Source of the DNA: an uncultured Clostridium sp.
GTDB taxonomy: Bacteria; Bacillota_I; Bacilli_A; RF39; UBA660
Direction: 5' to 3'
Length of the DNA stretch: 56,646 nt
Assembly (NCBI GenBank): GCA_964612605.1
Contig: CAZTEJ010000001.1
Coordinates: 1-56,646, forward strand
Shown here: in pieces, positions 1,787 through 32,504 of the stretch
Numbering within the stretch: position 1 is the first letter of the stretch
Layout of the letters: each line of letters opens with the position of its first letter
Notes under the pieces: model-generated
Told to the model about the DNA's origin: nothing
Database searches by the model: none
Seen by the model: only the letters and a program-made list of their open reading frames with translations
Translations under genes and position numbers: made by a program

Positions 1787-4430
1787 TACACCTCATTTCA
1801 GTAATTTTATTTACCATATATTCCTTTCCATTATTTTTATAAAAAGCTTTAATTTTTTCATAAAACATATTAATATTAGACTCTAACTTCTTAATATCAC
1901 TTTCTGTAATATGGGATAAAATATCTAAATTTTTTTCATCAGACAACTTAATAACATCAGGTGAAGTATTCGTTACCTGTAAAGAATGAATTCGAATAGA
2001 CGCAGTATCATAAGGAATATTAACAAAACTATATTTATTAAATATTCTACTCCACATATCTCTTTCCTGAGTAATTCTCATAGACTCATTAAAATATCCA
2101 ATTTCATTAAAAACACTTTTCTTAATTAATACAGAACCACCATTAATCTCCCCCATTAATAAATTATAAATACTACTAACAACAGAAATTTTATAATCAG
2201 ATGTATTAATTTGAGCAGATATAGTTTTATCAAAATTAATATCTCCATTTTCATCAATAACCTTAAAATTAACATAAGGAATTTTATTATAATTTTCTTT
2301 ATAAGAAACAAATTCGACAAGTTTCTCAATATGATTATAATCAATTAAATCATCATGAGAAAGCCAAGAAAAATATTCACCAGACATTTTTTTAATTCCA
2401 AAATTTAACGCACTAGATACTCCACCATTTTCTTTTTCAAAATACTTAATCTTATCACCATAAGATAAAGCTATATCCCTAGTAGCTCCATTATCATTAC
2501 TACCATCATTAACAACAATAATTTCAATATTACTATAAGATTGTACTAAAGCACTATCAATCGCACTATTTAAATAATTAGATGCATTATAAGCAGGAAT
2601 TATAATAGAAACTAAAGGATTATAATTCTTTACTTTATGCATATTACTCAAAGATTCCTCATACAATAATTTATTTAAATTAGAATTAAAATTCCATAAA
2701 TTATACTCTAAACTTTTATACATATTATAAAATGAAGTTTCAACTCTATTAATATTTGATTCACAAGAATTAAGATTATTAGTTAATAATAAAATATCTT
2801 TACTAATATTATTTATATTATTACTTAAAATATTAACTCTACAATCCAAATCAGAAAGATTATTTTTAATATCTGTTAAAAATATTCTTCTCTTAATTTT
2901 TCGTAACCCTCTATACATAAAAGATGATTTAATAGCACAATTAATATAATTTACTCTTTCCAAACTTACCGTCTTATTATAAAGCTCAACATTAAATAAT
3001 TTAATAATTTTTTCAACATTACTATCACAATAATCAATATTATTAACATTACCAACATCAACTCTTAAATATTTAAAAATATTAAGTTCATCCTCATCAG
3101 GCAAAATATTTAAATATAATTTTTTTAAAAAATACAAAACATTTTGAACATTATAATCATTATAATCAACCTCATACCTATCAACAAAATGTTTTTTTAA
3201 TTTATACTTTTGTCTTTCATAAGCATCATCATATATTTTTTTTAAACCAGATTCATAAATATTTATATCATATTTTTCTTTAACTAGATTAAATCCTTTA
3301 TTTCCTCTATCAATTCTTTCAACACTATTATTAATTAACAACTCAATTTTATTAGCCAAATCCTTAGAATCAAGATTCTTTACCAATACACCAACATCAG
3401 GTACATTAGTAACATCAGGTAAAGATGTATTATCAAAAACAACAACAGGTAACTTAGCAGCCATTGCCTCAATAGCCATCATACCAAAACTTTCCCCAAG
3501 AGATGGCATTAAAAATATATCAGCAACACCATAACAATCTAAAATTTTATCTTCATCAATATAACCTAATTCAATAAGTTGATATTTATTATCTAAATTA
3601 CCCAATAAACCGCAACTACCACAAGTTAATAAAGTAATTCCCTGATAAACATTTAACATATTTAAAGCATCAACAACATAAGCAATTCCCTTTTCCTCAG
3701 CTGATCTACAAAAAATAACAATATTATTATCTTTAATCCCATACTTCTTTTTTAAAATATCTTTCCTATCACTACAATTAGAATACTTACTTACATCAAT
3801 ACCAAAAGGCAACAAATGAACATGAGCATTTTTAAAATAAGGACTCTTCTTTACCAAATTAAGCATAAATTTACTAGAAACAATATAATCAGCATCAGCT
3901 TCAGTTACAAATTTATTCTTAATATTCCACAAAGAAGAACAATTATCAATCTTAAATGGAAACAAAGTATTTAAATTATCACATTTACAACACCCTTTAA
4001 TCCATTTCTCACATTTATCGGGATGAACACACCTTCCAGTCAAAAACCATGGATCATGTAAACTAATAACTGAAGGCTTACTTTTAATCATATTGCACAA
4101 TTCATATAAACCCAAATGAGCATTATGAATTTGATGATAATGAACCAAATCAGCATCTTTATAATATTTATTAGAGTTTAAATAACCAGCAGAAATAGAT
4201 AACAAAGAATGAACAGATAACAAATCATTAGATTCTTTATATAACAAATAATCAATATCTTTTCCAATTTTATTTTTAAAAATTTCACCAACAAAATCCT
4301 CCTTAGAATACTTATTAATTACAAGTTGTTTAACATTATAATTATCATCTAAATTAAAATGTTCAGCAATATCATAACCATTAAAAATCTTTCCATAAAT
4401 ATCATTGTCATTAACTTCCAAAATTTTCAT
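1767..4430 (-). CDS. Multidomain glycosyltransferase: N-terminal GT4 (GT-B) domain, Asn-rich/coiled linker, C-terminal GT2 domain
   Basis: 887-aa ORF. GT4-type motif GESFGMMAIEAMAAKLPVVVFD in the first half. C-terminal VSIIIPAYNAS..IEIIVVNDGSNDNG..FSWLSHDD is GT2. Confidence 0.8.
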   Translation of the reverse strand: MKILEVNDNDIYGKIFNGYDIAEHFNLDDNYNVKQLVINKYSKEDFVGEIFKNKIGKDIDYLLYKESNDLLSVHSLLSISAGYLNSNKYYKDADLVHYHQIHNAHLGLYELCNMIKSKPSVISLHDPWFLTGRCVHPDKCEKWIKGCCKCDNLNTLFPFKIDNCSSLWNIKNKFVTEADADYIVSSKFMLNLVKKSPYFKNAHVHLLPFGIDVSKYSNCSDRKDILKKKYGIKDNNIVIFCRSAEEKGIAYVVDALNMLNVYQGITLLTCGSCGLLGNLDNKYQLIELGYIDEDKILDCYGVADIFLMPSLGESFGMMAIEAMAAKLPVVVFDNTSLPDVTNVPDVGVLVKNLDSKDLANKIELLINNSVERIDRGNKGFNLVKEKYDINIYESGLKKIYDDAYERQKYKLKKHFVDRYEVDYNDYNVQNVLYFLKKLYLNILPDEDELNIFKYLRVDVGNVNNIDYCDSNVEKIIKLFNVELYNKTVSLERVNYINCAIKSSFMYRGLRKIKRRIFLTDIKNNLSDLDCRVNILSNNINNISKDILLLTNNLNSCESNINRVETSFYNMYKSLEYNLWNFNSNLNKLLYEESLSNMHKVKNYNPLVSIIIPAYNASNYLNSAIDSALVQSYSNIEIIVVNDGSNDNGATRDIALSYGDKIKYFEKENGGVSSALNFGIKKMSGEYFSWLSHDDLIDYNHIEKLVEFVSYKENYNKIPYVNFKVIDENGDINFDKTISAQINTSDYKISVVSSIYNLLMGEINGGSVLIKKSVFNEIGYFNESMRITQERDMWSRIFNKYSFVNIPYDTASIRIHSLQVTNTSPDVIKLSDEKNLDILSHITESDIKKLESNINMFYEKIKAFYKNNGKEYMVNKITEMRCNGEKES

Positions 4431-23051: not shown

Positions 23052-24767
23052 TTATGAAAGAACATAAGGATCATCACTAGTTCCACTACCAGAAACAAAC
23101 GAAACATTAGAATTTAAATACACAGTAGGAAAAATTCCATACGCATAATTACTACCATTCCAATTCTGATTAAAACCTCTAGAATCCAAATAAACAACCC
23201 CATTACTATAATCAGAATCAGTAGTAAGAGTCCACCAAATATAATAATTCCTATCAGAAGTACCATAACCACTAGGAACAAAATTTAACCAATTATTCTT
23301 AGTACAATCACTATTACCATAGAAATATTGAGTTTCCCCATCAGGTTCATGACTCTTCCATTCTTTATATAAATTTTTCCAACAAGAAGAATCAGAAGAA
23401 GCATAAGCATAATCAGAATAATACATAAGAGCAACCTTACCATTCCAAGTAGCAGTTCTATTTATCTTATCACCAGTATATACCTTAGTTCCCCTTTCAG
23501 CATTATAAACCTCTAAAGCACTCAGCTTCTCAGCATCATATGCAGAATCAGACGAATAAGCTCCCGTATTCCATACAACATTTGCAACCAATTCTTGTGA
23601 ATCAGCAAACAAAACATAATTTCTATTAAACTTAGTATTCTTTTTCAAACTACCAGCATCATACCAATAAGGATCAGATGATAAACTAGTATTTAAATAA
23701 TCTCCATTTAATTCATTCATTAATACCGAAGTATTCCAATCATTATAACCCCAACCACTATTAACAGAAGAGTTAGTAGAATTCCATGAAAAACTACCAA
23801 TCGAATCATTTCTAATTAATTTAAGCTTCTTACTATGAGTACTTAACGCATTACCTTCATCATCTACATCATAAATATCAAAAATACCTATTATTCTCCA
23901 AGTTTCATTATTAAACGAAACATAATTACTAGGATTACTACCAATATATCTTACATTAGAATCACCAGTCTCATCAACAGTTAAATCAGAAGAAGATAAA
24001 GAAGATAAATACTCAACAGCCGAAGGATTAGATTTAAACCAAATCTTAACTTTACTAGGTATATTATTAACACTAAGATTCCAAGTATTAGTAACCGAAT
24101 TACAACTAACTACAACACTACTATCACTTGTTTCAACTCCATTAACATAAGTTTTATAAGAAGTAGAATAATTACAACTAGTTGGAAACTTATCCTGCTC
24201 TACACCATCAACATATGCAACAAAATCAATATCTTTATGATAATTTTCTATCTGATTAACCAAAGCAAGTTCATTCCAAGAATACCCAGCATTCAAATTT
24301 AACTTAATATAATAATCAGTATCAGTCCTATTATTAGATAACAAAACAATAGAAACATTATCATCATTAATCAAAGTATCAGTAACCTTACCATTAGAAT
24401 CAACATGAATACCAAATACAACATCATCAGGTAACTTATCTAAAGTACTTGAACAACTACTATCACTACATACCTCATATATTAACTCATACTTAACATC
24501 CATACTATTTAAATTAGTAAGAACAACACTAAAACTCTCAAAAGTATTTGCTTTTAACTTAAGTATCCTATCATCACTTTCACCACTATTAGTAGTCATA
24601 TTAAAACTTAAACCATTAACTTTTATATTAGCAATATTTCCTTCTTTACTATTAGTAAACATAGACAAAGAGTACGATAAAGTACATACAAATAATACCC
24701 CAATTGCAATAATAAATATTACTTTACTCTTCTTATCCTTTTTAACTATATCTATAAAATCTTTCAT
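23052..24767 (-). CDS. Membrane-anchored surface protein with a C-terminal lectin-like domain related to the prophage DGR target
   Basis: 571 aa with an N-terminal TM anchor. ETWRIIGIFD, DRNYYIWWTLTTD and YGIFPTVYL segments parallel ITWRIAGFDVY, NRSYWYWLRSITT and GGVRPCFYI of ORF 29176..30918. Confidence 0.6.
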   Translation of the reverse strand: MKDFIDIVKKDKKSKVIFIIAIGVLFVCTLSYSLSMFTNSKEGNIANIKVNGLSFNMTTNSGESDDRILKLKANTFESFSVVLTNLNSMDVKYELIYEVCSDSSCSSTLDKLPDDVVFGIHVDSNGKVTDTLINDDNVSIVLLSNNRTDTDYYIKLNLNAGYSWNELALVNQIENYHKDIDFVAYVDGVEQDKFPTSCNYSTSYKTYVNGVETSDSSVVVSCNSVTNTWNLSVNNIPSKVKIWFKSNPSAVEYLSSLSSSDLTVDETGDSNVRYIGSNPSNYVSFNNETWRIIGIFDIYDVDDEGNALSTHSKKLKLIRNDSIGSFSWNSTNSSVNSGWGYNDWNTSVLMNELNGDYLNTSLSSDPYWYDAGSLKKNTKFNRNYVLFADSQELVANVVWNTGAYSSDSAYDAEKLSALEVYNAERGTKVYTGDKINRTATWNGKVALMYYSDYAYASSDSSCWKNLYKEWKSHEPDGETQYFYGNSDCTKNNWLNFVPSGYGTSDRNYYIWWTLTTDSDYSNGVVYLDSRGFNQNWNGSNYAYGIFPTVYLNSNVSFVSGSGTSDDPYVLS

Positions 24768-26473: not shown

Positions 26474-26521
26474 TTTTATCTAACCTCCTTTGAAGAAAAT
26501 ATATATAAAAAAGAGAACATT

Positions 26522-26806
26522 TTATTTGTCCTCTCCTTTACCATTATTAAAATTACTTAATCCATTAGAACCTAAACTGATAGAAATGGATGTTAAAAGA
26601 TATAAAAATATATCAATAAAATTAAAACTATTCATAACAATATTTGTTATAATTAAAAGAATAAACGATATAAAAAAACTCCAATATTTTGTTGGAATTT
26701 CTTTTATAAATTTTAATTCTTTTGTAAATTCTACTACCATAAAAACAATGGATATAAAACTTGCATAGGTTGTTAATACATCCCAAGTTAAAAAATTTTC
26801 CATCAT
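26522..26806 (-). CDS. Putative holin
   Basis: 94 aa with three hydrophobic helices and a charged C-terminus (NNGKGEDK), upstream of the endolysin. Confidence 0.7.
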   Translation of the reverse strand: MMENFLTWDVLTTYASFISIVFMVVEFTKELKFIKEIPTKYWSFFISFILLIITNIVMNSFNFIDIFLYLLTSISISLGSNGLSNFNNGKGEDK

Positions 26807-27138
26807 ATTTTCCCTTCTTTCTTTAATTTTTCTACTTTATGGTCAATATAACTATTGCCACCAAGTTCATGGTATCTTTTGTAAGTTTCATAAAACCTTT
26901 CCCATTCCACCTCATCAATTTTACTTCCTTGGTCAACATCACTTAAAAATCTAACTAAAAAATTTTTATCAGTTCCTATTTCTAAATCATTTATTCTGTT
27001 GGAAATGGGACTTATTTCTTCTTTAAATGTGGTTTTCATCCACTTTTTTAGTCTTACCGATAAATATTCTATTGAACCAATTAAAGCAACCAAAAAAGCC
27101 AGTAATTTGCTAATCTGACCTAATGTAATACCTTCCAA
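26803..27138 (-). CDS. N-terminally membrane-anchored protein of the lysis cassette
   Basis: 111 aa with one N-terminal TM (LLAFLVALIGSI) followed by a charged helical region. ATGA overlap with the holin gene. Confidence 0.5.
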   Translation of the reverse strand: MEGITLGQISKLLAFLVALIGSIEYLSVRLKKWMKTTFKEEISPISNRINDLEIGTDKNFLVRFLSDVDQGSKIDEVEWERFYETYKRYHELGGNSYIDHKVEKLKKEGKI

Positions 27139-27164
27139 TTCATCTTCCTCCTTTTTTAATTACT

Positions 27165-27190
27165 AAAAAAGACAACTTTAAATTGTTGCC
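27165..27190 (-). terminator. Terminator-like hairpin just downstream of the DGR reverse transcriptase gene
   Basis: Minus strand reads GGCAAC-AATTTAAA-GTTGTC (6-bp stem including one G.U pair) followed by TTTTTT. Confidence 0.45.
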
Positions 27191-27209
27191 TTATTCTATA
27201 TACATTTAT

Positions 27210-28349
27210 CTAATGTGAATTTTTTGGATTATTATTAATAAATAAATCATCAAATAATTTATCTAAACTTCTTAAACTTTTATGGCAGTCATATTTCTTA
27301 ATATTACCTTTCCAAGATTTGTACTGTTCTTCTATGTCGTGAAATTCAATTAAACCTTTATCCAATAAATTTTTAAATCTTTTTAATTTTCTTCTCTCTC
27401 TAATAAAATTATTTTTTACAGGTATTCTTACTAAATGCCCTGTATCTGTTAATCTATATTTTATTTTTAGAAAAGTAAAACCTTTATCTAATCTAAATAA
27501 CTGTGTTTTTTTATGATTAATGAAAATTCCCTGTTTTTCACAAATCTTGTTAATCTCATCTAATAAAGATTTTAATTCTTCTTTACTATTTCCGATAATA
27601 TATGTATCATCCATATATCTACCATAAAATTTAATTCCTTTAACTATTTTGCAATAATTATCCATTTTACTAGGATAATAAATTCCTGATATTTGAGATA
27701 TTTGACTGCCTATCCCTAATGATTTATGCATTATTTTTTCGCCTGTCTTTTCTGTATTTGCTTTTGCATAAACAAGTGAGTCAAATAATTCATTTTCTTT
27801 TATATCATAATTGGATATATCAACAGAAAAACTATCAACTAAATGACTAATTAAATTAATAATATCTTCATCATCAATAATTTCTCTATACATATCCATC
27901 AAAGGTTTATGAAGTATATTATCATAAAACTTACTAAAATCAATAATGAGTGCATATCCTTTATTTCCATATTTTCTATAATATTTATGTAAATGATTTT
28001 CTATTCTTCTTCTAGCAAAATCAATTCCTTTGTTCTTCACACTTGCACCATTATCATGTATTAAATATGGTTCAACTATGGGATTTAAAGAGTCACACAA
28101 AGCCCTTTGTACAACTCTATCATAGAAACTTATGGAGCGAACATATCTATCTTTTCCTCTTTCTTTAAGATAAAAGCAATAAAAATCTTGTTGTTTATAT
28201 GTCTTTTCTCTTAATTCTAATTGAGTATGTCTAATATTTTTTAAAAAATTTGCTTCATATTGCTGAACACTATTTTTCCAATTACAACCTTTTTTGGCTT
28301 CGTAAAAACTATTCATTAAAACATTGGCATTACTTATTTTATTTAACAT
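27210..28349 (-). CDS. DGR reverse transcriptase
   Basis: 379 aa. ERGKDRYVRSISFYDRVVQRAL, IIDFSKFYDNILH, SLGIGSQISQ (the DGR-typical [IL]GxxxSQ) and YGRYMDD catalytic motifs. Lies 120 nt downstream of the TR. Confidence 0.95.
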   Translation of the reverse strand: MLNKISNANVLMNSFYEAKKGCNWKNSVQQYEANFLKNIRHTQLELREKTYKQQDFYCFYLKERGKDRYVRSISFYDRVVQRALCDSLNPIVEPYLIHDNGASVKNKGIDFARRRIENHLHKYYRKYGNKGYALIIDFSKFYDNILHKPLMDMYREIIDDEDIINLISHLVDSFSVDISNYDIKENELFDSLVYAKANTEKTGEKIMHKSLGIGSQISQISGIYYPSKMDNYCKIVKGIKFYGRYMDDTYIIGNSKEELKSLLDEINKICEKQGIFINHKKTQLFRLDKGFTFLKIKYRLTDTGHLVRIPVKNNFIRERRKLKRFKNLLDKGLIEFHDIEEQYKSWKGNIKKYDCHKSLRSLDKLFDDLFINNNPKNSH

Positions 28350-28469
28350 ATTTTGTTCCTAACTCTAATTGACTTATCAAAGAGTATCAAAATATCTATT
28401 TGCCTTTCGGACAGGATAAAGTTTCCTTTTAATTCTTGCAACGGTACTTAACCTAATCATTGTGCAAGT
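28350..28469 (-). ncRNA. TR-RT spacer, presumed 3' part of the DGR template RNA
   Basis: 120-nt non-coding interval between the TR and the RT start. Contains a CTTGCA...TGCAAG stem-loop immediately 3' of the TR. The role is assigned by analogy with characterised DGR RNAs. Confidence 0.5.
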
Positions 28470-28556
28470 TAAAATCAGGGGCGAACACCACCAGTAGCAG
28501 AAGCATTGTTGTTGTTGCTATTACCATTGTTGTTGACATTAGCGAAAGCAGACGCC
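28470..28556 (-). repeat. DGR template repeat (TR)
   Basis: Non-coding 87-bp copy of 29186..29272 (offset 716), with 76 identities. In the target frame it carries nine AAY codons (AAT GTC AAC AAC AAT GGT AAT AGC AAC AAC AAC AAT). It is a GC-rich island in AT-rich DNA. Confidence 0.95.
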
Positions 28557-28571
28557 CAGAAAATACAAACT

Positions 28572-29120
28572 TTACCCTTTTTCTTTTTCTAATTCTTTAA
28601 ATATTTTATTATCTGATTTTCGCCAACCTTTTAATAATAAAATTTCTTTTTCAATTATATCAACATATACCATGTATTTTTCCACATTCGGATGACATAC
28701 ACAAATTATATATTGCATTTCTTGAAGTAAATTTTCACAATTACAAATTGCTTGTGTTTGATAGTTTCTTCGCATATAGTATTCTTCTTTATTAGTTATA
28801 TGAATTGTATTTGCAGAACAAATATTTTTCATTAAATCCCTTAATAAATCCATAAAGTAATCTCTTTCTTTATCTATTAGCCATGTTGGAAAATTATCTA
28901 TAAAACTATTTTTCATATCATAAGCAGACAAGATTTGTTCAATTTCTGATACATCTTCATCCGTTATATCATATACTTCTTTTGCAAATTCTAAATTTCT
29001 TCTTCTTGATTTTATACCAAAATCTTTCAAAAGAAATTCAGTTATCATAAGTCTTAATTTTATTGCATTATGATAAAATTCCATTTTCGATATGTTTCTT
29101 TTTCTTTTCAATACACTCAT
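28572..29120 (-). CDS. Accessory variability determinant (Avd)-like protein, assigned by position
   Basis: Basic, helix-rich ORF between VR and TR. Preferred start is ATG 29120 (MSVLKRKRN, 182 aa), 7 nt after a GAGGAGGG RBS, rather than the track's GTG at 29156. Confidence 0.6.
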   Translation of the reverse strand: MSVLKRKRNISKMEFYHNAIKLRLMITEFLLKDFGIKSRRRNLEFAKEVYDITDEDVSEIEQILSAYDMKNSFIDNFPTWLIDKERDYFMDLLRDLMKNICSANTIHITNKEEYYMRRNYQTQAICNCENLLQEMQYIICVCHPNVEKYMVYVDIIEKEILLLKGWRKSDNKIFKELEKEKG

Positions 29121-29148
29121 TATCAATCCCTCCTCGACATCTTTAACC

Positions 29149-29165
29149 CACCCCACAAGGGGGTG
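29149..29165 (-). promoter_or_regulatory. GC-rich hairpin 20 nt downstream of the VR (candidate DGR target-recognition element)
   Basis: Minus strand reads CACCCC-CTTGT-GGGGTG (6-bp stem, 5 of the pairs G:C), in the 55-nt gap between the target stop and the avd start. Confidence 0.5.
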
Positions 29166-29175
29166 TGATTAAAGA

Positions 29176-30918
29176 TTAATCGATATAAAAGCAGGGGCGA
29201 ACACCACCAGTAGCAGAAGCACTGCCGCTGTGGCTACTACCATCGTAGTCGACATAAGCGAAAGCAGACGCCGTTGTAATACTTCTTAACCAGTACCAAT
29301 ATGACCTATTAGTAATATATTCAGGTGCTAATCTAAATAGTGGTAATTGGCAATTATCACTACCAATATCATATCCACTAGATGACCATGCAATTGAACC
29401 ATATACTTGCACTTCATTCATCAAGTCCAACTTTCTACTTTGCCATGCCCATGCATTAGAGCAACCACTATTTGTTCCAAATCTATTATAACCTGATGAA
29501 TTGATACCAGTTGTAAGTAAATTTCTTATTTCAAGAACATGAGTACCAAAAACAGGTGTTATATAAGTGTCTAAAACACTTGGCAATGTTGTAGTATACA
29601 TAGCACTTGCAACATAACCACCAACAGTAGTATTTGTATCATTCATTTGTGCTGTTGCTAGATGTTTGTCAGGAACAATTATCGCATGATGCTTCGTTAA
29701 TTCGGTGTCCCCCTTATGTAAGTATACATCAAAACCTGCAATTCGCCAAGTTATTGAGTTCTTAATTATATAATCCCCAACAAATAAATCATCAAAACTA
29801 CCACTTGAAATTCGTGTAAATAAAGTACCATCATCTAAATAACTTGTAATGTCTTTACCTCTAAAAACAGAATTGTGATAACCAGCAACTGCTTTATTGG
29901 TTAAATCATCAAATTTGCCACCTGTGGCAACTGTTTTTATGTTGTCTAGTATATTCTTATATGCAGTAGTAAATGAAGCAGTAATGCTATCTAAAATGGA
30001 TTTGTTGCTGTGTGAGTGCCTATTTGTTGTATTACTATCTAAATTACTTTTATCAGTAGTTGTAAAACTTGCAGTTGTTCCATCCAAAATTGATTTATTT
30101 GAATGAGTATGTCTATTAGTAGTATTCGCATCAACTTTACTTTTATAATCATTTGTAAAGTCATTTGTACTTAATCCCTTACCTGTCTGTTTTTCTTGAT
30201 ATACACCACTTTTAACATTAAAAGTAAGTTTTCCATTTACTGTTTTTAATTCTAATGTTGTACCATCTGCATAATATTCATTAACTAACTCTGCAACAGG
30301 TATTTTAATAGTATCACTATTTGCTAAAACTAATACTAAACTTTCGGTAGAACTATCATAATGACCACTTTTAATTAATAACTCTAATGGCAAATCAATT
30401 TGAACAGTGGAATTATCTTTTCTAGTAAAAGTCAATACACCATTTGATGCATTATAAGATACATCTTTAAATACATCATCTAATGTTGATAATGTTTCGT
30501 TTATTTCATCTTTTAAAGTGATAACATCATTGATTAAACTATCTAATATTTGATAATTTTCTTCTTTTACTATTTCATCATCCATATCAATTTGACCATC
30601 TACTATTGTTATATTCCCTTTTGCAGTATTTGTTAATCTACTATCACTACCATATAATGCAACACTAAATAAGTATTTTCCAACTTCATTAAAAGCCATA
30701 TTCTTTTCAAAAGTCACTTTATTATCATTTATTTCACTTGAAAAATGCAAACCACTTGGTTTTACCATATAAAATATTGCTTTTGAAAAATCATTTTTAC
30801 TTAATTGAAAATTAAATTCAATTGAATTATAGTCACCTTTTACAATTTTTATTTCATCTGATGTTATACTATCACTTTTTTCAAAATTAACTAAAATATC
30901 AAATTTTTTATTTTCCAT
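29176..30918 (-). CDS. Tail fibre / receptor-binding protein, the DGR target (C-terminal lectin-like variable domain)
   Basis: 580 aa. Tandem HxH repeats (NTTNRHTHSNKSILD / NTTNRHSHSNKSILD). C-terminal YWYWLRS...GGVRPCFYID carries the VR. Last structural gene of the tail module. Confidence 0.9.
   Translation of the reverse strand: MENKKFDILVNFEKSDSITSDEIKIVKGDYNSIEFNFQLSKNDFSKAIFYMVKPSGLHFSSEINDNKVTFEKNMAFNEVGKYLFSVALYGSDSRLTNTAKGNITIVDGQIDMDDEIVKEENYQILDSLINDVITLKDEINETLSTLDDVFKDVSYNASNGVLTFTRKDNSTVQIDLPLELLIKSGHYDSSTESLVLVLANSDTIKIPVAELVNEYYADGTTLELKTVNGKLTFNVKSGVYQEKQTGKGLSTNDFTNDYKSKVDANTTNRHTHSNKSILDGTTASFTTTDKSNLDSNTTNRHSHSNKSILDSITASFTTAYKNILDNIKTVATGGKFDDLTNKAVAGYHNSVFRGKDITSYLDDGTLFTRISSGSFDDLFVGDYIIKNSITWRIAGFDVYLHKGDTELTKHHAIIVPDKHLATAQMNDTNTTVGGYVASAMYTTTLPSVLDTYITPVFGTHVLEIRNLLTTGINSSGYNRFGTNSGCSNAWAWQSRKLDLMNEVQVYGSIAWSSSGYDIGSDNCQLPLFRLAPEYITNRSYWYWLRSITTASAFAYVDYDGSSHSGSASATGGVRPCFYID
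29186..29272 (-). repeat. DGR variable repeat (VR), the last ~30 codons of the fibre gene
   Basis: Differs from the TR only at plus-strand TR T positions 28475, 28506, 28509, 28510, 28512, 28516, 28521, 28528, 28531, 28534 and 28540. Encodes YVDYDGSSHSGS where the TR encodes NVNNNGNSNNNN. Confidence 0.95.
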
Positions 30919-30932
30919 ATCTCATTCCTCCT

Positions 30933-32504
30933 TTAAGCACTCCTTTTCCAATAATAAATCGTTTCATTATTTATCGTTTGACTAGTCAATAATACCCAAG
31001 TTCCACTTACATATGTTGATGGATTTGTATTTGCTGATGTAATTATAATTGAATTAATTGGATGTAAATTATCAAAGTCACATCCATTGACTTCAAATGA
31101 ATTTTCTTTTGTTGGAAAGCAGTTTATTCCAACAGACTTTAAAAGAACATCTATAAACATAATAGGTGTTCCTTTTGCTATAACTAAATTATAAGTAGTC
31201 GTTCCAAATTTATCCTGAATTACGAATTGAAAATTATAAGCATATAACTTATTTATTGAAATTTCATATTCGGTATTGTTTGAAATTGATACATAAGAAT
31301 TATAATCACTATCTGATGTCTTTTTATAACGATATTTTATTGATTGTATTGCATTTTTGCTATTTACACTTGAAATAGAAACTTGAACTTTTATTTTTGT
31401 ATTATCTTCGTAGTTGTTTAATCTCCTTGCACTAATAACTGCTGATGGCAATATCCAATCAAATATTGTAATCGTTTTAGAAATAGTCGTGCTATTTCCT
31501 CGACTATCTATTGCTTTTATGCTAACTACTGAATTTGAACCTATATTAACAGTTCCATAATTTATTGTTGATGCTCCTGTTTTATTTTGAGTAGCCCCAT
31601 TAAATGTAACTTCATATTTTGATATACTTGCACCCTTTTTTGCTTTTGCACCAGTAAATGATACTTGCAAATTAGAGTTATTTCTAACTATGTGTTGATT
31701 ATTACCAGTTATATCAACTATTGAACTATTAGTATCTTGATAAGATATTTGAGAATTAGTAAAAATTGGATTTCCATTTACAATTGTTAGGGTCTTATCA
31801 AGAGTTGAATAAAAAGTTGTATCTCCTATAACTGTTCTAACATAAAATTTAACAGTTCTTGAATTTGAAGTTGTTGTTGCATTTCTCAATGTATTTCTTT
31901 CATTCTCAGTCAAGTTAAAAGTATAAGATGACCCTGTTTTAGAAATCGCTCTATAAGGTACATCATCATTTGAACCCGTAAGTGAAATACAAGCATCTAA
32001 TGAATTTACGGAATCTCCTGCACTATTTGAATAATTAATAGTGGGATTCTGTTCATCATTAAAATCTGTTGCACTTGTCAAATTGGCTTGTCTAGGAATT
32101 TTTGAACATACCATATCAACACTATTCGCTTGATAAAAACTAGGATTATCCCATCTGCTAGCAACTCCATTACCATAATAGAATAATTGTTTTACATAGG
32201 CTGATAAAGTTAATGAGCCATCGGAATTATTATCAAATGTCGATGTTCCAGATGCTAATTCCCATCCTTCCGACCAATTTGATTTTTCTGGTTTTCCATC
32301 ATATAAAACTTTTCCTCCTAATGTGACATATGCTCTATATAGTGTTGACCATGAGTTGTGACAGGTTATTTTCCACTTTACTGTTGTTTGATTAGTTGCT
32401 CCATTTGTTTGTGTAATATCAGTAACAGTTAATTTAATATATGATTTTTGACCACTATGTGGCTCTGAATAGTTTGATAACGAACTAGGACTAATACTTG
32501 CCAT
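30933..32504 (-). CDS. Tail/baseplate-associated structural protein (second fibre or receptor-binding candidate)
   Basis: 523-aa Ser/Thr/Asn-rich beta-type sequence between the Tal and the DGR-target fibre. Confidence 0.55.
   Translation of the reverse strand: MASISPSSLSNYSEPHSGQKSYIKLTVTDITQTNGATNQTTVKWKITCHNSWSTLYRAYVTLGGKVLYDGKPEKSNWSEGWELASGTSTFDNNSDGSLTLSAYVKQLFYYGNGVASRWDNPSFYQANSVDMVCSKIPRQANLTSATDFNDEQNPTINYSNSAGDSVNSLDACISLTGSNDDVPYRAISKTGSSYTFNLTENERNTLRNATTTSNSRTVKFYVRTVIGDTTFYSTLDKTLTIVNGNPIFTNSQISYQDTNSSIVDITGNNQHIVRNNSNLQVSFTGAKAKKGASISKYEVTFNGATQNKTGASTINYGTVNIGSNSVVSIKAIDSRGNSTTISKTITIFDWILPSAVISARRLNNYEDNTKIKVQVSISSVNSKNAIQSIKYRYKKTSDSDYNSYVSISNNTEYEISINKLYAYNFQFVIQDKFGTTTYNLVIAKGTPIMFIDVLLKSVGINCFPTKENSFEVNGCDFDNLHPINSIIITSANTNPSTYVSGTWVLLTSQTINNETIYYWKRSA

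Follow-up and report, generated by a model that had tools for sequence, protein, structure and literature searches.

Evidence for a complete diversity-generating retroelement with a DUF6273 tail-fibre target in a gut prophage

The window analysed here is a stretch of 56,646 nucleotides (nt) from an uncultured Clostridium sp. (GenBank assembly GCA_964612605.1, contig CAZTEJ010000001.1). We conclude, with a probability of about 0.93, that it contains a complete diversity-generating retroelement (DGR) in a siphovirus-like prophage of a low-G+C Gram-positive gut bacterium. All genes of the region lie on the minus strand, in the order DUF859 tail protein, target gene, Avd-like gene, template repeat (TR), 120-nt spacer, reverse transcriptase (RT) gene and terminator-like hairpin. 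The variable region (VR) forms the last 29 codons of the target open reading frame (ORF), which encodes 580 amino acids (aa); the TR is intergenic and contains an in-frame stop. The original prediction, made from the letters of the sequence, had proposed a DGR. An RT, an Avd-family gene, a VR in a tail-fibre gene, a hairpin after the VR and structured RNA flanking the TR were all found, in agreement with that reading.

Template and variable repeats

The pair formed by the TR (28470-28556) and the VR (29186-29272) is the top direct repeat of the region reported by a repeat finder. Both the repeat finder and a separate realignment give a gapless alignment at offset 716 with 76 identities over 87 positions, reproducing every number of the original alignment. 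The 11 mismatches (28475, 28506, 28509, 28510, 28512, 28516, 28521, 28528, 28531, 28534 and 28540) are all plus-strand T in the TR, that is, A on the coding (minus) strand. The TR has 22 such adenines, and none of its 65 non-A positions differs from the VR, again as originally described. The probability that 11 of 11 mismatches fall on A by chance is 2.5e-8 (hypergeometric) or 2.7e-7 as (22/87)^11, close to the roughly 3e-7 first quoted. In the frame of the 580-aa ORF at 29176-30918(-), the TR reads ASAFANVNNNGNSNNNNASATGGVRP*F and the VR reads ASAFAYVDYDGSSHSGSASATGGVRPCF, and the nine AAY codons of the TR are all altered in the VR, as had been claimed. That NNY codons can specify 15 amino acids and never a stop, as originally stated, is a consequence of the standard code. 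No further VR-like copy turned up when both strands of the window were scanned with all changes at A permitted.

At 28475 the TR has TGA and the VR has TGC; this mismatch is 30 nt from the others and just past the G+C-rich block, and the TR and VR diverge 6 nt beyond it. The base after the GCTTCTGCTACTGGTGGTGTTCGCCCCTG block is C in all 16 distinct VRs described below and A in all TRs. Because these VRs come from other samples and carry C in 16 of 16 cases, the sequence comparison identifies 28475 as a fixed difference of the type that separates IMH* from IMH (initiation of mutagenic homing), and we reject it as a mutagenesis event. The original total of 11 mutagenic mismatches therefore becomes 10, and every one of these variable mismatches (10 of 10) is at an adenine. 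The shared A-poor, G+C-rich block and the fixed A/C difference fit what is expected of an IMH/IMH* pair. Within the invariant block, in TR and VR alike, a terminator scan flagged a hairpin of 5 base pairs (bp), GGTGG-TGT-TCGCC, followed by CCTG(A/C)TTTTA (28480-28492 and 29196-29208); it may be due to chance or be part of IMH function.

Variation across related loci

An exact look-up found the window's RT protein on no other contig, and a 92%-identical RT (P0004) and cluster members were used instead. We gathered 20 related loci (L001-L020) in four ways: by searching public collections with the invariant 29-nt block; from contigs encoding P0004, which is present on 558 contigs; from the closest target protein; and from one member of the window's own RT cluster. 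A VR is present in 17 of these loci, which are independent and come from metagenomes, and a TR in 17. The AAY block of the TR is the same in 17/17 loci, and 16 of the 17 VRs are distinct, the sole duplicate pair coming from one study.

Thirteen distinct TR/VR pairs show 138 differences at TR adenines and 13 elsewhere. The fixed position equivalent to 28475 accounts for 13 of the 138, leaving 125 variable changes (68 A to G, 35 A to T, 22 A to C). Ten of the 13 non-A differences are at the first position of the register used in the original prediction, which falls outside the repeat in one lineage. The other three are singletons, and two of them are single substitutions on the TR side (L011 and L019) that are absent from the corresponding VRs. 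With the end position outside the repeat set aside, variable A-site differences outnumber non-A differences by 125 to 3 in these 13 pairs. Changes at A go to all three other bases and are confined to codon positions one and two. No VR has a change at the A of ACT (coding position 62), and the A of AGC varies in 1 of 16 VRs; the nine AAY codons are thus diversified as originally proposed but do not mark the limit of diversity.

Independent occurrences carry different VRs beside the same TR, and realignment shows no mismatch at a non-A position; both checks, which the original prediction had named as able to refute it, thus came out in its favour. Loci L003-L006 encode the same RT protein in different genomic neighbourhoods and have four different VRs; 13 further target proteins of the same sequence cluster all differ in their VR peptide; and the VR of L017, the closest relative, is wholly different from that of the window. 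Non-A positions carry lineage-specific changes that are common to TR and VR. The window has GGCGTCTGC (an Ala codon) in both copies, the commonest relatives, including L003, have GCTTCCTG (a Cys codon) in both, and L017 has GCGACTGG in both. Copying between the repeats is the sole explanation for this covariation, and the presence of GGCGTCTGC in both window copies therefore implies at least one homing event after the split from the 92%-identical relatives. At the level of sequence, these comparisons show template-to-target transfer and support activity in the lineage well; activity of this particular copy today is likely. The claim of recent activity thus stands for the lineage, given its VR diversity across loci, but not as a direct demonstration for the copy in the window.

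Individual loci show further changes. The VR of L009 (reverse strand, about 3590-3664) is one codon (3 nt) shorter than its own TR and carries T in place of C at one site of the invariant block, and the VR of L004 has a T-to-A change in the G+C block. At L016 (1-1260), an in-frame fusion joins a radical-SAM-like N-terminus (CNNNCKWC) to the final ~70 residues of the Avd-like protein. The fusion is followed by a TR, a spacer and an RT of normal form, there is no target gene upstream, and the 5' part of the TR is unlike that of other lineages; the element has been rearranged, or else the contig is a chimera of assembly. Logan contigs of ~3.1-3.2 kb are the only source of dozens of RT variants that are almost identical, which suggests that contigs end at set positions around the cassette; the TR/VR repeat or a heterogeneous VR may be where they break. 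L018 and L021 start 157 nt upstream of the RT, inside the TR.

Target protein

The DUF6273 model (PF19789) matches residues 537-580 of the target, its last 44, with 24.7 bits against a gathering cut-off of 23.5. An AlphaFold2 model of the last 247 residues has a mean confidence (pLDDT) of 94.6. In Foldseek searches this domain matches phage DUF6273 and receptor-binding proteins with E values down to 3e-30 and, in the PDB, the Thomasclavelia ramosa IgA peptidase 9qa6 (E 5e-5), whose N-terminal domain is DUF6273. The structure matches to DUF6273 proteins span about 200-285 columns, which backs the domain assignment. A search of the target against PDB sequences gave nothing meaningful, and neither sequence nor Foldseek comparison matched Mtd, the target of Bordetella phage BPP-1.

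DUF6273 targets in DGRs of gut prophages have already been published. The domain is a DGR target with a C-terminal VR in Faecalibacterium prophages (PMC11792537) and has been called C-type-lectin-like in the 'tentaclin' DGR phages (PMC10743442).

Reverse transcriptase and accessory protein

DGR-clade RTs are marked by [ILV]GxxxSQ in the palm and by a YxDD box. The RT gene starts 120 nt after the TR. Its best solved relative is bRT of BPP-1 (8ub7, E 2e-14); IGSQISQ in the window RT aligns with IGSLTSQ in bRT, and YMDD is present. Roles of bRT residues I181, G182 and Q187 have been described (bioRxiv 10.1101/2023.10.23.563531).

The 182-aa product of the gene upstream of the TR matches PHROG 3206, 'Avd protein of DGR', with E 2e-4, and 30 of 32 sampled members of its family, which are ~180 aa long, match the same PHROG, the best with E 1.6e-11. 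In its AlphaFold2 model (pLDDT 73.8), residues 34-78 form an insertion and four long helices make up the rest; Avd is a pentameric four-helix-bundle protein. The top Foldseek matches, 2rld and 2gsc, are small helical-bundle proteins annotated as S23-ribosomal-protein family or hypothetical; that family includes Avd. No NCBIfam match and no meaningful PDB sequence match was obtained with the single sequence or with a profile. Sequence and model together support assignment to the Avd family of accessory proteins.

In a protein collection clustered at 90% identity, the 182-aa protein is filed in an 887-member cluster whose representative and most listed members are 580-aa targets, probably a clustering artefact. 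The 580-aa members listed each have a VR peptide of their own; P0139 carries a frameshift within its VR, and the VR of P0144 comes close to the template (YVSGNGNSNNNN).

RNA around the template repeat

The covariation set comprised 16 non-identical TR-spacer units, from the window and from relatives down to 54% RT identity. These share six helices with 40 base pairs in total; pairing across the set is 93.6%, and 22 of the pairs have changes in both partners. In controls, 0 of 500 shuffles reached any of five measures, and sliding the partners by 1-3 columns left 34-50% paired. An Rfam search of 26500-31500 at E <= 1 returned no family.

An 11-bp duplex between the end of avd and the spacer closes the TR into a loop. 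The pairing of UUUUAA with UUAAAA in the spacer is kept by compensation, as UUUUAG/CUAAAA in L035 and as UUUC..../....GAAA in L034. By analogy with BPP-1, we infer that UUUUAA:UUAAAA is the template:primer duplex, with A 28427 as the priming nucleotide and 28475 as the first templated base. The first spacer stem-loop has an inner stem that pairs in every case (100%), 2 of its pairs being compensatory. Its outer stem reaches 60% pairing in the alignment, in which distant units are out of register, and has compensatory changes in L003; by eye, without re-alignment, the distant units form an equivalent outer stem. Both tiers of the long stem-loop at 28348-28395 are 100% paired, with 4 (outer) and 8 pairs changed on both sides. 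This stem-loop holds the ribosome-binding site of the RT gene (AGGAA, in the loop region) and covers the first two bases of its start codon, and its folding may compete with RT translation.

Hairpin downstream of the variable region

The inverted repeat at 29139-29176 pairs CACCCC with GGGGTG in its core, continues into an outer stem of A/T pairs and leaves a loop of 5 nt. Folded as DNA it reaches -16.9 kcal/mol (z = -5.15), and 0 of 200 shuffles are as stable. The outer stem shows compensatory changes in L023, L025, L026 and L032. G+C-rich hairpins or cruciforms of DGRs are reported to lie 4-34 bp downstream of the VR, and for phage DGRs a 4-nt GRNA loop consensus is reported, a loop that is critical in BPP-1 (PMC3240598). 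The hairpin in the window, 15 nt past the invariant block, lies within that range. We considered whether it is a mere terminator and did not adopt this reading: no T-run follows it, and it stands directly before the ribosome-binding site of avd.

Proposed mechanism

Under our reading, a transcript of the avd end, the TR and the ~120-nt spacer would fold around an RT-Avd complex through the helices that covariation indicates. If BPP-1 is a guide, UUAAAA in the spacer would pair with UUUUAA 3' of the TR, and an adenosine near 28427 would prime cDNA synthesis from about 28475. The RT would copy ~90 nt of the TR, misincorporating only opposite adenines, a specificity that the TR/VR comparisons show, and synthesis would presumably halt at the 11-bp duplex of avd end and spacer. 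The cDNA would then replace the VR at the 3' end of the tail-fibre gene; this transfer is the step to which the shared non-A changes attest. Homing would probably rely for guidance on the A-poor, G+C-rich block common to TR and VR and on the hairpin past the VR. The outcome would be random recoding of nine AAY codons, and occasionally of AGC, at the tip of the DUF6273 receptor-binding domain, which would let the phage change its host-receptor specificity.

Alternative explanations

A relic DGR would leave much the same pattern: diversification would lie in the past, and the cassette in the window would no longer work, for example because it is silenced in the lysogen or disabled by a substitution invisible to us. 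This copy is known from one sequence and its exact RT from no other contig, and homing is not continuous, as shown by TR changes in L011 and L019 that have not yet reached the VR and by the 3-nt deletion in the VR of L009. Against this, all ORFs are intact and of full length relative to homologues, and in the window no RNA helix is disrupted and the VR hairpin is preserved. TR and VR also share GGCGTCTGC, which places a transfer after the split from the 92%-identical relatives, and the closest relative, L017, has a wholly different VR. We therefore regard a relic as very unlikely. An ordinary segmental duplication or gene-conversion tract, with the VR differences arising by recombination among existing fibre alleles, can draw on the shortness of the repeat (87 nt) and on the fact that tail-fibre tips are recombination hot spots. 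It is effectively refuted by mismatches that fall only at TR adenines (11/11 in the window, 125 versus 3 across loci), by an AAY block that never varies in the non-coding copy, by a DGR-type RT and an Avd adjoining the repeats, and by changes that yield each of the three other bases but spare the third codon position.

Several observations nevertheless weigh against a complete and active DGR. For the accessory protein, the Foldseek matches to 2rld and 2gsc have a probability of 1.0 but a weak E value of 0.15, and no Pfam model matches. The C-type lectin matches of the target domain in Foldseek are weak. The hairpin loop (window, CTTGT; L026 and L032, TTTAT) departs from the 4-nt GRNA consensus, although that consensus describes phage DGRs in one study and does not define the family. 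Folded as a single sequence, the whole TR-spacer RNA is no more stable than shuffled sequences (z = -0.27), and for this reason the RNA structure is drawn from covariation. The priming site and the cDNA ends are placed purely by analogy with BPP-1, and the case for activity of this particular copy comes from one sequence.

Genomic context

Phage tail, head, packaging and lysis genes adjoin chromosomal genes in the window, which sets the element in a siphovirus-like prophage of a 27% G+C Gram-positive gut bacterium. Tail, head and packaging genes lie upstream of the cassette; after the RT gene and the terminator-like hairpin, which probably ends the cassette transcript, come small genes and an endolysin. 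Bacterial chromosome fills positions 1-23000, where glycosyltransferases, enolase, FemAB, BipA and YfhO are encoded. A 92%-identical element occurs in a metagenome-assembled genome titled 'uncultured Bacilli bacterium' from a Hadza gut sample, and megablast of the cassette against the GenBank phage collection gave no nucleotide match. A sigma-70 promoter scan was uninformative (13 sites versus 15 expected). At the junction of the bacterial genes and the prophage lysis module is a 571-aa ORF (23052-24767, minus strand) with an N-terminal hydrophobic segment and no match in Pfam or PHROGs. Feature coordinates are collected in Table 1.

Table 1. Coordinates of the DGR cassette and associated features in the window
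Feature	Position	Strand	Basis
DUF859 tail protein	30933-32504	-	Precedes target gene
DGR target, 580-aa tail-fibre/receptor-binding protein, after the DUF859 gene	29176..30918	-	ORF; DUF6273 match; tail-protein neighbours
C-terminal 247-aa DUF6273-type globular domain, VR at its very end	29179..29919	-	AlphaFold2 and Foldseek
VR, in the register of the original prediction	29186..29272	-	Alignment
VR hypervariable core	29222-29256	-	16 distinct VRs vary only at TR-A positions
Invariant A-poor block GCTTCTGCTACTGGTGGTGTTCGCCCCTG at 3' end of VR, IMH-like; then fixed C at 29191	29192..29220	-	Same in TR and VR; kept in all loci
Inverted repeat (hairpin/cruciform) from target stop codon, 15 nt past VR block	29139..29176	-	DNA fold
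Avd-like accessory gene, 182 aa from the ATG of homologues; mechanical ORF reaches GTG at 29156	28572..29120	-	PHROG 3206, AlphaFold2, Foldseek
5' strand GGGUAAAGUUU of 11-bp TR-closing duplex, spanning avd stop codon	28567..28577	-	Pairing 100% in 16 sequences, with both partners changed in 3 pairs; counterpart of the BPP-1 'cPRT Stop' duplex
TR, non-coding, between avd and RT gene	28470..28556	-	Alignment; AAY block same in all 17 TR copies elsewhere
TR adenine-rich core	28506-28540	-	Alignment
TR IMH*-like block	28476-28504	-	Alignment
UUUUAA directly 3' of TR block, predicted to pair with spacer UUAAAA (28427-28432)	28469..28474	-	Compensatory changes
First spacer stem-loop CUUGCA...GGU-UAAGU-ACC...UGCAAG, in the position of the Avd-binding stem-loop	28435..28468	-	Helices 2 and 3
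Predicted primer strand UUAAAA and conserved 2-nt GG linker	28425..28432	-	Order and spacing as in BPP-1
3' strand AAACUUUAUCC of TR-closing duplex, partner of 28567-28577	28414..28424	-	Helix 1 covariation
Short stem-loop G-U-CC-GAAA-GG-C, GNRA loop, 2-3-bp stem, then unpaired AAA	28399..28412	-	93.6% paired, 2 compensatory pairs; arranged like the BPP-1 cPRT Stop stem-loop and A-minor adenosines
Long two-tier stem-loop, AUAUUUUG/CAAAAUAU around ACUCUUUGA-UAAG-UCAA-UU-AGAGU, in the position of the RT-binding element	28348..28395	-	Helices 5 and 6
DGR reverse transcriptase, 379 aa	27210..28349	-	RVT_1 E 9e-20; PHROG 1423 E 4e-73
Terminator-like hairpin and T-run just past RT stop codon	27169..27192	-	Consensus scan only

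Comparison with known systems

The RNA elements of the BPP-1 ribonucleoprotein are known from cryo-EM (bioRxiv 10.1101/2023.10.23.563531). An Avd-binding stem-loop (spacer, Sp, 3-33) is followed by a TR:Sp template:primer duplex (TR117-129:Sp47-56) that ends in the priming adenosine, Sp A56. Two unpaired nt, the 11-bp avd:Sp 'cPRT Stop' duplex and a 2-bp stem with a tetraloop come next, and then A-minor adenosines and the RT-binding stem-loop (Sp95-139).

The window resembles BPP-1 (mtd-avd-TR-brt) in its gene order, a target with a C-terminal VR followed by avd, TR and RT. Also shared are the adenine-specific TR/VR differences, the G+C-rich block that closes the VR on its 3' side and is followed at once by a TR/VR difference, and the inverted repeat past the VR. 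The closest solved RT relative is bRT, with IGxxxSQ and YMDD common to both, and the spacer RNA elements occur in the same order, including a primer strand ending in A, a 2-nt linker, an 11-bp duplex with the avd end, a 2-bp stem capped by a tetraloop, adenosines and a long stem-loop. The two differ in the length of the TR (about 81-87 nt in the window versus 134), in the target (DUF6273 versus the Mtd C-type lectin domain) and in the hairpin loop (5-nt CTTGT versus GAAA). Further differences are the Avd-like protein of 182 aa with its ~45-residue insertion and no Pfam model, an IMH/IMH*-like tail of only ~6 nt after the G+C block, and the 27% G+C Gram-positive host.

The Faecalibacterium prophages Lelie, Roos and Pioen (PMC11792537) and the tentaclin phages nd4/nd12 (PMC10743442), compared here by their descriptions, differ in host lineage. 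The cellular DGRs of Treponema denticola (TvpA) and Legionella (LdtA) follow the same principle of adenine mutagenesis and have lectin-like variable domains, but TvpA and LdtA are cell surface lipoproteins, whereas the target in the window is a prophage tail fibre among tail and lysis genes.

Two more distant relatives with 62-66% RT identity, L033 (~1551-2600) and L035 (~1003-2030), have four tandem ~250-nt units before a single RT. Each unit combines GGGTAAARTTT, the 5' strand of the duplex, with an AAY-rich TR that differs slightly from those of the other units and with a complete spacer in which every helix is present. The arrays are in chromosomal context (ZnuA, RNase III, SMC). L033 has one VR within reach (~524-610, 13 A-site differences), for which unit 4 or unit 2 gives the best fit. 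The literature mentions DGRs with multiple TRs.

It is conceivable, though we think it unlikely, that the element and its relatives form a distinct DGR sub-lineage of low-G+C Bacilli and their prophages with rules of its own. The suggestion comes from the enlarged Avd (182 aa, ~45-residue insertion), the non-GRNA, pyrimidine-rich 5-nt loop and the 'duplex-TR-spacer' module repeated in L033 and L035. If it were true, the loop would imply a different target-recognition contact, and the four-fold tandem modules would suggest that one RT-Avd complex can be loaded by interchangeable templates for several targets. The departures themselves (an enlarged Avd outside Pfam coverage, a non-GRNA loop, a very short IMH tail) are modest.

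Implications

The element is a typical gut-prophage DGR with a DUF6273 target and leaves knowledge of DGRs unchanged. It offers a second, phylogenetically distant RNA on which the architecture of the BPP-1 ribonucleoprotein, from primer strand and 2-nt linker to 11-bp stop duplex, tetraloop and adenosines, can be tested, and its compact 87-nt template and small cassette from a low-G+C host may be of interest for engineering DGR-based mutagenesis. The four-fold tandem TR-spacer arrays of the distant relatives are the sole feature here that might repay more work. The population data argue for activity without experiment: one invariant template accompanies a near-unique tip in almost every metagenome that carries the element. 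For the prophage, the comparison flags a receptor-binding protein as hypervariable, which bears on host-range prediction and on strain tracking in gut metagenomes.

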